Origin: a virus
Taxonomy: Duplodnaviria > Heunggongvirae > Uroviricota > Caudoviricetes
Length of the DNA: 4,301 nt
Strand: one strand, 5' to 3'
Virus record (IMG/VR): IMGVR_UViG_3300000293_000103
Shown here: in pieces, positions 209 through 4,139 of the stretch
Layout of the letters: every line of letters begins with the position of its first letter
Position numbering within the stretch: the first letter of the stretch is position 1
Position numbers and translations under genes: made by a program
Notes under the pieces: model-generated
Seen by the model: only the letters and a program-made list of their open reading frames with translations
What the model was told of the DNA's origin: nothing
The model's database searches: none

Positions 209-350
209 TTCACTTTAAAAAGGGCGGCAGAGCAGTCACGGAGTAAAACTGATACCGCCAAATGTCACCAGAAAATTGATAACAGAGGGCGTTGCAGCGG
301 GGTTGTCACTTAAGCGTATGGTCAACCTGACAACCCGGTGTCCTCAACGG

Positions 351-1509: not shown

Positions 1510-2184
1510 TCAGTCTAAGTATTGATGTATTTGTGAAACTTTACCTTTAATGGTGTAACCACCATTCAGTTCGATGGGTTTGTAAAGCGGATTCAGTGAC
1601 AACAGATAGATGTTTGGTCCGTCAATCGCAACTTTTTTTAGTGTTACGTTTGGCGTTCCTTCCAATTGGATTAAGATTATTTTTCCCACCAGTTCTCTAA
1701 TGTTACTTGAGCATGGTGTGATCAGCACGGTAGATCCATCGGGGATGGTTGGGAGGCCGTTAGAGTTTGTCATCGCATCTCCCTCAACATGCAATAAAAA
1801 AGAGTTTTCAGCGGTTTTTGTCATGACATCAACCCAATTCTTAATGCCAGGAATCTCGGTTACTGGACAACTCATATCCCAATAACCAGCCTGTTCCCAC
1901 GTTAAAACGGGCAACCGGGCGATGTTGTCACTAATGTAAAGATACTGATTCAGACGCAGATCATCGGTTTTATCGTGACCGTCCTTTCCATAAAGAATCC
2001 ATTCAGGAGATTTGGAAAGCAATTTTGACAGTAGATGCAAATTCTCACCGTCAGGTTTTGAAGAGCCATTTTCCCATTTTGTTACGGATACACGAGATAT
2101 GCCGATTGCTTTCGCAACCTGCTGTTGGGTTAATCCAACGTCTTTTCGACGATTCCGAATACGTTCGCTGATAGTGTTTTTCAT
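1510..2184 (-). CDS. Prophage CI/C2-type repressor: N-terminal XRE-family HTH plus C-terminal LexA-like S24 peptidase domain, with Ala at the catalytic Ser position
   Basis: N-terminus MKNTISERIRNRRKDVGLTQQQVAKAIGISRVSVTKWENG matches the P22 C2 / DicA HTH pattern. Linker has an Ala-Gly (EQAGYW) at the expected cleavage position. C-terminus has HVEGDAM...TLKKV, i.e. the S24 motif with Ala for Ser. Start placed at ATG 2184-2182 by alignment to P22 C2; the ORF-track TTG start at 2283 would run across the operators and the cro start. Confidence 0.88.
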   Translation of the reverse strand: MKNTISERIRNRRKDVGLTQQQVAKAIGISRVSVTKWENGSSKPDGENLHLLSKLLSKSPEWILYGKDGHDKTDDLRLNQYLYISDNIARLPVLTWEQAGYWDMSCPVTEIPGIKNWVDVMTKTAENSFLLHVEGDAMTNSNGLPTIPDGSTVLITPCSSNIRELVGKIILIQLEGTPNVTLKKVAIDGPNIYLLSLNPLYKPIELNGGYTIKGKVSQIHQYLD

Positions 2185-2984: not shown

Positions 2985-4139
2985 ATGGCTAACGCCTGGC
3001 TCAGATTATGGCATGACATGCCAAATGACCCTAAGTGGCGAACAATTGCCAGGGTGTCAGGGCAGCCAATTGCAACAGTGATGGCAGTGTATATCCACCT
3101 CCTGGTGAGCGCGTCACGAAATGTCACGCGAGGTCACATTGATGTCACGACAGAAGATTTGGCAAGTGCGCTCGACGTGACAGAAGAGGTAATTGATTCA
3201 ATTTTGCAGACGATGCAGGGGCGGGTACTTGATGGTGATTTAATCACTGGATGGGAAAAACGCCAGGTGCTGAAAGAGGACAACGGCAATATTTCGCAAA
3301 CCGCAAAGTCTCCGGCAGAGCGCAAGAGGGCGCAGCGAGAGAGGGAAAGAAAGCGGGAACAAAATGGCGATTGTCACGGCGAGTCACGAAATGTCACGCA
3401 CATGTCACGACGAGTCACGACAGATAAAGATACAGATAAAGATACAGATCAAGAAGATCAAAACACTATGGTCCATGGCGTAAAAAACGCCACGAACCAG
3501 GCAGGGGATGTTCAGACCGTCACTCCTGGCCAGCCCGCAGGCACGACACCGGAAGCCGATTCAGCGTATGCGCTGAAAGCCGATTCGGGCGCTGTGCAGC
3601 AGGTGATGACCGCAAGGCAGGAGCAATCACACCAACTTCAGCAGCCTGAAGCCGATTCCGCCATTCAGCGGGAANNNNNNNNNNNNNNNNNNNNNNNNNN
3701 NNNNNNNNNNNNNNNNNNNNNNNNNNNNNNNNNNNNNNNNNNNNNNNNNNNNNNNNNNNNNNNNNNNNNNNNNNNNNNNNNCACCGGGCAGCCTATGGGA
3801 CGAGTGGATTATCCTGATGTGTTCGAACAGGTCTGGCGGGAATACCCGTTGCGTGCCGGGGCAAACCCGAAGAAATCCGCTTTCAGTGCCTGGAAAGCCA
3901 GATTACGCGAGGGGGTGCCACCAGAGGCCATGCTGGATGGCGTGAGGCGTTACGCAAGATACCTTGCGGCTACCGGGAAAACGGGAACGGAATTTGTTCA
4001 GCGAGCGACGACGTTTTTTGGACCGGACCGGAATTTTGAAAACCCCTGGCTGCTCCCGGTAAGCGGCACGAACAACCAGCGTTGTGTGAATCATATTTCT
4101 GAACCGGATACCGAAATTCCACCGGGCTTCAGGGGGTAA
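2985..4139 (+). CDS. Phage replication initiator-like protein (lambda O / Rac YdaU-type), with iterons and a low-complexity linker inside the gene
   Basis: ATG 2985 preceded by GAGGTG with a 5-nt spacer (the track's GTG 2979 is 2 codons upstream); TAA at 4137-4139. Structured N-terminal domain, charged KR/DE-rich linker coinciding with the DNA repeats, conserved-looking C-terminal domain (YPDVFEQVWREYP...FSAWKARL...RYARYL...FFGPDRNFENPW). The frame is assumed continuous across the N gap at 3675-3781. Confidence 0.7.
   Translation: MANAWLRLWHDMPNDPKWRTIARVSGQPIATVMAVYIHLLVSASRNVTRGHIDVTTEDLASALDVTEEVIDSILQTMQGRVLDGDLITGWEKRQVLKEDNGNISQTAKSPAERKRAQRERERKREQNGDCHGESRNVTHMSRRVTTDKDTDKDTDQEDQNTMVHGVKNATNQAGDVQTVTPGQPAGTTPEADSAYALKADSGAVQQVMTARQEQSHQLQQPEADSAIQREXXXXXXXXXXXXXXXXXXXXXXXXXXXXXXXXXXXXTGQPMGRVDYPDVFEQVWREYPLRAGANPKKSAFSAWKARLREGVPPEAMLDGVRRYARYLAATGKTGTEFVQRATTFFGPDRNFENPWLLPVSGTNNQRCVNHISEPDTEIPPGFRG
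3113..3149 (+). repeat. Iteron cluster A: four direct GTCAC(G/A) repeats at 3113, 3123, 3133, 3144 (10/10/11-bp phasing), plus an inverted GTGAC at 3177-3181
   Basis: Read directly; the 17-mer GTCACGAAATGTCACGC is identical to one in cluster B (3383-3399). Confidence 0.65.
3373..3419 (+). repeat. Iteron cluster B: five direct GTCACG repeats at 3373, 3383, 3393, 3404, 3414 (10/10/11/10-bp phasing); candidate origin core
   Basis: Read directly; helical-turn phasing is typical of initiator binding sites (lambda ori lies inside O). Immediately followed by the AT-rich repeat. Confidence 0.7.
3421..3464 (+). repeat. AT-rich tandem repeat (CAGATAAAGATA x2, then degenerate CAGATCAAGAAGATCAAAAC) with two GATC sites; candidate DNA-unwinding element
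   Basis: About 70% A+T, A-skewed on the plus strand, adjacent to iteron cluster B; GATC at 3447-3450 and 3456-3459. Encodes the DKDTDKDTDQEDQ linker peptide. Confidence 0.6.
3675..3781. other. Run of 107 N (gap or masked) inside the replication gene
   Basis: Literal N characters; 107 is not a multiple of 3, so reading-frame continuity of the flanking ORF is an assumption. Confidence 0.95.

Follow-up and report, generated by a model that had tools for sequence, protein, structure and literature searches.

The window analysed here is a 4,301-nucleotide stretch of Caudoviricetes DNA (IMG/VR record IMGVR_UViG_3300000293_000103) and represents the region for immunity and replication in a lambdoid, Qin-like Escherichia coli prophage. 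The gene of its replication initiator (positions 2985-4139, plus strand) contains two arrays of short direct repeats, here named array A and array B, a single inverted copy of the repeat and an A+T-rich tract directly after array B. The vegetative (theta-type) replication origin of the prophage is likely embedded in this gene of its own initiator. In an initial annotation of the window the combination of iterons with an A+T-rich unwinding tract had been taken for an origin, and this proposal is supported by the joint change of the repeat type in both arrays among relatives and by frozen synonymous sites, and further by the presence of the tract in 67 of 67 relatives and by the finding of no other such arrays in the complete genome of the phage Evi. 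The principle of an origin inside an initiator gene is long established, and the gain is in this respect incremental; what is noteworthy is that an accessory array co-evolves within the codons of the DNA-binding domain itself and that the tract is conserved in sequence.

Repeat arrays and the adjoining tract in the window

Array A (3113-3149, plus strand) consists of four direct GTCAC(G/A) copies, which start at 3113, 3123, 3133 (GTCACA) and 3144 and encode approximately residues 43-56 of the initiator (SRNVTRGHIDVTT). Array B (3373-3419, plus strand) consists of five direct GTCACG copies starting at 3373, 3383, 3393, 3404 and 3414, located in the codons of linker residues 130-147 approximately (SRNVTHMSRRVTT). 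The single inverted copy is CGTGAC at 3176-3181, or GTCACG when read from the minus strand, and its codons give D64-V65-T66, within the turn of the helix-turn-helix. The spacing of the repeats is 10, 10 and 11 bp in array A and 10, 10, 11 and 10 bp in array B. The nine direct copies in two clusters, the one inverted copy, the 10-11 bp phasing and the two repeated peptides were all found as annotated. The conserved core of the repeat is 6 bp long (GTCACG) with weak flanks and is repeated directly every 10-11 bp, and the peptides of the two arrays are similar (SRNVT..VTT). The repeats had also been placed in a low-complexity linker of the protein; this holds for array B, which falls in a low-confidence linker of the structural model described below, and fails for array A, which is located at the end of helix 3 and in the loop preceding the helix-turn-helix, within the folded N-terminal domain.

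GTCACR occurs 12 times in the window compared to 4.0 ± 1.9 expected, a number reached by none of 200 shuffled sequences, and 10 of the 12 copies fall in 3113-3419. GTCAC copies at 235 and 264 lie within the DicF RNA gene and are unrelated to the origin repeats. Induced phages including Evi, Tritos and vB_EcoS-640R1 are 98-99.9% identical to the window. In the complete 40-kb genome of Evi the GTCAC pentamer is overall at chance (81 vs. 78 expected), and at least three copies occur within 60 nt only in the two arrays of the initiator gene and in one chance triple near 8878; a second origin-like array as in oriR of phage SPP1 was not found in this genome. DnaA boxes near the arrays were considered as an additional element and rejected, as matches to TTWTNCACA with at most one mismatch numbered 9 compared to 8.5 expected, none of them at the origin. 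The search for a promoter or terminator giving array A a regulatory role likewise returned nothing above chance frequency; one weak minus-strand promoter-like site within array B and one minus-strand terminator-like hairpin both occur at chance frequency.

Immediately downstream of array B is a tandem tract rich in A+T and purines (3420-3464), a candidate DNA unwinding element, in which Tandem Repeats Finder detected 2.9 copies of a 12-nt unit (ACAGATAAAGAT) at 3420-3454. The A+T content of the tract is 71% compared to 51% for the window, and GATC sites are present at 3447 and 3456, in agreement with the tandem repeat of approximately 70% A+T with two GATC sites that had been described as abutting the second cluster. 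The least stable 40-mer of the window starts at 3424 (z = +2.9) and ranks 137 of 39,979 in Evi, where the top-ranked unstable 40-mers sit elsewhere, near 32,260. For the 40-mers at 3113-3190, in the region of array A, the stability z values were between -0.5 and +0.2, and no A+T-rich tract follows this array. Directly after the tract, an inverted repeat (3469-3499; arms of 13 nt, loop of 5 nt) is possibly an accessory element of the origin.

Repeat type and codon conservation among relatives

A first scan of viral contigs returned only near-identical E. coli copies without diversity. The search with the N-terminal domain of the initiator yielded 424 clusters of relatives at E-values up to 1e-5, and 585 matching stretches came from the viral-contig scan. 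For the comparison, 80 loci from the scan with an alignment were used, one genome per species, derived from Gamma-, Beta- and Alphaproteobacteria and a few other groups. The repeat type was assigned by counting five pentamers in zone A (gene nt 105-235) and zone B (gene nt 300-520).

Pseudomonas phage phi1 and Aeromonas phage pAEv1818, whose N-terminal domain is 70% identical, carry four GTCAC copies at the window's own offsets from the start codon (129, 139, 149 and 160), inverted copies approximately 64 nt past the first repeat and, approximately 260 nt downstream, a second array of 3 or 4 copies that passes directly into an A-rich tract (GATAAAGAT...). The two phages differ in the C-terminal half of the protein and in the downstream genes; phi1 has a primase-helicase there and pAEv1818 a small gene labelled 'replicative helicase'. 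Among relatives with unlike C-terminal domains and unlike downstream helicase genes, homology includes array B and breaks off at the tract, which suggests that the N-terminal domain, the two arrays and the tract constitute one portable module. A Caudoviricetes contig with 41% identity has GAACGC in both arrays, and Ralstonia phage Hennie with 39% identity has GCAACG in both, its inverted copies at a similar offset reading CGTTGC.

Both arrays could be typed in 61 of the 80 loci, array B only in 10 and array A only in 1, so that a typed array B is present in 71 loci; the remaining 8 contain none of the five types. The comparison of repeats among homologues that the initial annotation had called for gave the same positions and spacing in phi1 and pAEv1818 and a two-array layout in 61 of the 80 loci. 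Two clusters, which had been considered unusual, are the norm in this family, and the description of the first cluster as auxiliary is a fair one, as 10 loci retain array B only and a single one array A only. Where both zones were typed, the type was the same in A and B in 60 of the 61 loci (27 GTCAC, 21 GAACG, 5 GTAAC, 4 GTGAC and 3 GCAAC), and it followed the lineage of the N-terminal domain in hosts as different as Escherichia, Ralstonia and Sphingomonas. Judged from this distribution, the two arrays have probably switched type jointly at least four times; as far as sequences can tell, the two arrays must be of one specificity, which travels with the gene. The variation of the repeat type with the N-domain lineage supports the view that the repeat sequence would be specific to the replicon's own initiator.

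The repeat spacings of the relatives match the 10-11 bp of the window. The distances from array A to array B, available for 57 loci, cluster near 9 modulo 10 (189, 219, 229, 249...; Rayleigh R of 0.52 at a period of 10.0 bp), a preference for which other periods score too, which is inflated by relatedness and which fades at 10.5 bp if each distance is counted once. In two loci (L130 and L151) the same N-terminal domain is fused to a GIY-YIG nuclease-like motif, as judged by eye, and TACGTA-type repeats are found in place of both the usual arrays and the A-rich tract (gene nt ~300-470).

Synonymous sites were compared in 22 GTCAC-type genes with a mean nucleotide identity of 69%, the first 100 codons of which are free of indels. 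In codons of conserved residues, the frequency of the commonest third base was 0.98 in the repeat cores of array A and 0.84 in the inverted copy, compared to 0.54 for the remainder of the domain (repeat-core vs. other third positions, Mann-Whitney p = 1.4e-6). The codons TCA, GGT, CAC, ACG and GTG are maintained even in G+C-rich hosts, and the codon of V65 in the inverted copy is GTG in 19 of 19 relatives. Moreover, the hexamer is read in three frames, as S-R, V-T and G-H, and the 10-11 bp spacing is not a multiple of three. GTAACG-type genes (L105, L108, L116, L125 and L128) are without the copy at 129, the frame of which gives a TAA stop, which indicates that the genetic code limits the positions of the repeats; the remaining array A copies of these genes are often 21 bp apart. 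Relatives without array A carry an ordinary loop (A-E-x-R-G-x-x-G-W) at that place, and the peptide encoded by array A is therefore apparently not needed by the protein. On the evidence of these comparisons, a purely protein-level origin of the repeats is excluded.

In the 45 nt past the last repeat of array B, the A+T content is 0.64 compared to 0.44 for the gene and is higher in each of the 67 loci, and the same 45 nt are purine-rich on the coding strand (0.72 vs. 0.57). The tract is conserved in sequence beyond its A+T content, with the units AGATAAAGATAAAGAT, AGATAA, AGATAC and AGAGAA(G) and the frequent ending AGATCTAAAA. As the motif is kept in G+C-rich hosts (Bordetella, Acidovorax and Pseudomonas) and in differing reading frames, the tract appears to be under selection at the DNA level, beyond any role as a D/K/E-rich linker. 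G+C-rich hairpins are present in relatives (L086-L165) at the place equivalent to 3469-3499, with a mean fold z of -1.70 compared to -1.01 and -0.56 in two other segments of the same genes used as controls, which is moderate evidence. The hairpins of the relatives are short, and their loops are often 4 nt long, for example TGAC or TAAC.

Proposed origin function and alternative readings

Based on the anatomy of iteron origins and on the in-gene origins of lambda and SPP1, 3373-3464 is taken as the core origin, and the cI-like, Cro-like and YdaT/cII-like genes upstream together with the initiator-family match lend support to this assignment. In the mechanism proposed here, the N-terminal domain of the initiator would bind the repeats by their 6-bp cores, which lie one helical turn apart and hence on one face of the DNA. 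Binding at the five repeats of array B would distort the DNA and open the tract at 3420-3464, and the C-terminal part of the initiator would recruit the host helicase. The route of recruitment, by DnaB-DnaC or by the restart primosome, is a guess; the DnaT-like tail of the protein and the finding of no phage helicase or loader suggest use of the host primosome or capture of DnaB-DnaC. Array A, with its four direct copies and one inverted copy approximately 260 bp upstream of array B, would be a second site for the same protein, and its most likely role is in assembling or restraining the origin complex, either by forming a loop with array B or through titration or pairing of the initiator. It is regarded as accessory because it is absent in some relatives; recognition by the same factor, the missing unwinding tract and its dispensability in some lineages would suit an accessory site acting as an enhancer or in negative control.

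The gene O of lambda contains four 18-bp iterons and a 38-bp A+T-rich sequence (PMC3349717), and these iterons are inverted repeats that bind O dimers (PMC5043065). The lambda-like arrangement claimed in the initial annotation stands as far as the layout is concerned: the origin is placed in the initiator gene at the junction of a DNA-binding N-terminal part and a C-terminal part, an A+T-rich tract of approximately 40 bp flanks the repeated initiator sites on one side, the gene comes after cro- and cII-like genes in the operon, and the N-terminal domain and its sites would act as one specificity module. The resemblance does not go beyond layout, as the initiator of the window is not an O homologue. 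Its repeats have 6-bp cores in direct orientation every 10-11 bp, unlike the 18-bp inverted-repeat iterons of lambda, a second array is located approximately 260 bp upstream within the codons of the DNA-binding domain, and a P-like loader gene is not found downstream.

In SPP1, oriL is located inside gene 38 and combines repeats bound by G38P with an A+T-rich unwinding element, and a 356-bp fragment of it is sufficient for replication in vitro (PMC5737612, PMC6316719). The initiator of the window may likewise be of the 'replisome organizer' type, according to its NCBI name and a full-length, sub-threshold match to Phage_rep_org_N, and its own gene contains direct repeats with an adjacent A+T-rich candidate unwinding element. 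In contrast to SPP1, which has its own loader and helicase (G39P and G40P) and a distant oriR, the E. coli phages considered here have neither. With 15.9 bits compared to a cut-off of 23.3, the sequence relationship is too weak for membership, and any kinship of the protein with the SPP1 organizer family would be distant.

Origins of iteron plasmids consist of helically phased direct repeats beside an A+T-rich region (PMC5043065). The short, helix-phased direct repeats near an A+T-rich region in the window resemble those of P1, F, RK2 and pSC101, and by sequence and phasing they appear closest to such plasmid iterons. Plasmids P1 and F carry a second set of the same repeats near the initiator gene (incA and incC, respectively), to which the second repeat set of the window would be analogous. 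The differences are that both arrays of the window are inside coding sequence, that DnaA boxes are not present above chance, that the module belongs to a lytic or temperate phage and that the initiator is not demonstrably Rep-like in fold.

Several observations weigh against the assignment of an origin. The 22 genes used for the synonymous sites were chosen on copies 2 and 4, which fixes the GTC codons of these copies and leaves the other core codons free. None of the five repeat types was found in 8 of the 80 loci, and the five types may represent only about five clades, in which case the agreement in 60 of 61 loci would reflect few independent events. The codons of the A-rich tract also specify an acidic D/K/E linker, and the composition of the tract may partly serve the protein. 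The score of the N-terminal domain stays under the Pfam replisome-organizer threshold, and comparison of the domain with the PDB by Foldseek returned weak matches to winged-helix regulators only (E-values above 0.2), none of them significant. In the literature, searched with regard to GTCACG iterons, origins of prophage replisome organizers, phage proteins similar to DnaT and replication modules of Stx phages other than that of lambda, neither a published description of this origin nor experiments on binding, unwinding or initiation in this family were found.

A possible though doubtful alternative concerns array A, which could be a negative control element that titrates or handcuffs the initiator or, once bound, keeps the initiator gene from being transcribed. 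In plasmids P1 and F, a second iteron set (incA and incC, respectively) restricts initiation in such a manner, by titration or pairing. The shared repeat type in 60 of 61 loci, which indicates binding of the same factor, fits this possibility, as do the unremarkable stability of the 40-mers at array A with no A+T-rich tract after it, the dispensability of the array in evolution (10 loci with array B only) and its position early in the initiator's own coding sequence. Evidence to the contrary is that no promoter was found at or near array A, that self-limited initiation would be of little gain to a lytic phage and that the weak preference of the inter-array distances for steps of approximately 10 bp equally fits cooperative looping in aid of initiation.

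It is very unlikely that the arrays are sites for the initiator or another regulator in gene regulation only, with replication starting elsewhere in the phage. Such a reading draws on the fact that the origin is placed here by comparison and on the location of Evi's most unstable 40-mers near 32,260. It is opposed by the joining of repeats to an A+T-rich tract in all 67 loci, which is the signature of iteron origins (PMC5043065), by the finding of no other repeat array in the 40-kb Evi genome and by the similar layouts in lambda and SPP1, which are proven origins (PMC3349717, PMC5737612).

Reading of the repeats by a host protein or another phage protein rather than by the encoded initiator is considered highly improbable. 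Binding of the initiator to the repeats is inferred, and the 3' half is alike in all repeat types (..ACG) and could be read by a common factor; however, the repeat type tracks the lineage of the N-terminal domain in hosts from Escherichia to Ralstonia and Sphingomonas, a host factor would leave the cis-linkage unexplained and the arrays are confined to the initiator gene. Hardly credible is the explanation of the repeats as a by-product of a repeated peptide, of duplication or of gene conversion with no function as DNA, since the similar peptides of the two arrays and the likeness that gene conversion between them could maintain are set against one hexamer encoding different residues in three frames at a spacing that breaks the codon register, frozen synonymous sites in the cores, an ordinary loop in relatives without array A, in which the peptide is unneeded, and an inverted copy that switches type along with the direct copies.

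An origin embedded in the initiator gene would provide a specific candidate for a large group of prophage initiators across Proteobacteria, and the five natural pairs of repeat type and N-terminal domain could be used for studying the evolution of initiator specificity. The arrays represent an overlapping code, in which a predicted protein-binding array is kept in the codons of a folded domain, and arrays of this kind may be usable for computational origin finding in prophages. The DnaT-like tail and the finding of no helicase or loader gene point to capture of the host helicase in a manner unlike that of lambda P. A more far-reaching joint reading, to which only a small chance is assigned, is that the gene constitutes a self-encoding specificity module, with the recognition sequence present twice in its own gene, one of these times in the surface-loop codons of the domain that reads it, and that the hexamer tract (AGATAA/AGATAC/AGAGAA)n is more than an A+T-rich region, namely a single-strand recognition element for the assembly of filaments by DnaT-like C-terminal domains or by the host DnaT pathway. 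If the former were true, the protein, the auxiliary site and the core origin would have to change together; if the latter were true, the tract would be akin to the repeats for single-stranded DNA binding by DnaA, and the host helicase would be loaded without a phage loader.

Initiator protein and prophage neighbourhood

The initiator was taken from the list of open reading frames (2985-4139, plus strand); its frame is interrupted by a run of N, and the protein has 356 amino acids in the closest complete relatives. It matches the PHROG family phrog_3729 ('replication initiation protein') over its full length with an E-value of 7e-257. The RefSeq label of the coding sequence in the locus of E. 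coli strain DETEC-P169 is 'hypothetical protein', and the NCBI name for fragments is 'phage replisome organizer'. An AlphaFold2 model was generated for residues 1-148 from an alignment of 39 sequences (mean predicted local distance difference test score, pLDDT, of 74, with blocks of 86-94). The model contains helices at residues 4-14, 16-25, 29-45, 56-63 and 67-77 and a small wing at 78-87, and according to it the N-terminal domain (residues 1-95 approximately, codons at 2985-3269, plus strand) is winged-helix-like and predicted to bind DNA. A profile search of PDB sequences with this domain gave no match. Pfam Phage_rep_org_N (PF09681) was matched with an E-value of 0.013 over profile positions 1-119 of 121, at the sub-threshold score given above, and the same family was matched at an E-value of up to 0.1 in 3 of 39 relatives of the domain. 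Pfam Phage_rep_O was not found in the full 356-amino-acid protein in a scan at E-values up to 1.

The last 24 residues of the initiator (..SEPDxEIPPGFRG; codons at 4065-4136, plus strand) differ little from the C-terminal tail of DnaT from E. coli. The NCBIfam DnaT model NF002770 is matched at model positions 156-179 only (E-value of 7e-4, 19.3 bits compared to a cut-off of 201), and the PDB chains 6aep, 2ru8 and 9zbt match the tail at E-values of 0.003-0.07. The C-terminal domain of DnaT forms filaments on single-stranded DNA that mark the site of helicase loading (PMC13377028). The identification of the initiator as DnaT, a label used in some records, was rejected, as the tail alone is in common, with no full-length family match and no Pfam DnaT domain in the protein. 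The Pfam DnaT single-stranded DNA-binding domain is present in 13 of the 39 relatives of the N-terminal domain, and PHROG labels touching the C-terminal domain include 'DnaD-like helicase loader'. The model of the C-terminal domain has a pLDDT of 61 and gave no fold match, its set of homologues being shallow and rich in frameshifted fragments. The DnaT-like tail also terminates an unrelated protein, P0157.

Over 3.2 kb, the window and the DETEC-P169 chromosome are 100% identical. The gene order of the window comprises the DicF RNA gene (222-273, minus strand; Rfam RF00039, 77 bits), small genes similar to ydfC, ydfB and ydfA, a cI-like repressor of the S24/LexA type (1510-2172, minus strand), a P22-Cro-like gene (2276-2491), a YdaT/cII-like gene (2488-2913) and the initiator gene. 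Downstream of the latter, a DUF977/Ren-like gene and small unknown genes are located in place of a P-like loader gene, and no helicase or loader gene was found in the complete Evi genome.

The run of N at 3675-3781 within the initiator gene is 107 nt long, and only 23 nt occupy the same place in the closest relatives; the excess of 84 nt keeps the frame and could be arbitrary filler or conceal an in-frame insertion. For the left run of N (351-446, 96 N), the length likewise disagrees with that in the relatives. Beside the run in the initiator gene, a 17-nt repeat (CCGGAAGCCGATTCAGC) is present in three copies starting at 3549, 3573 and 3645 (within 3549-3661), which encode a repeated PEADSA peptide in the linker.

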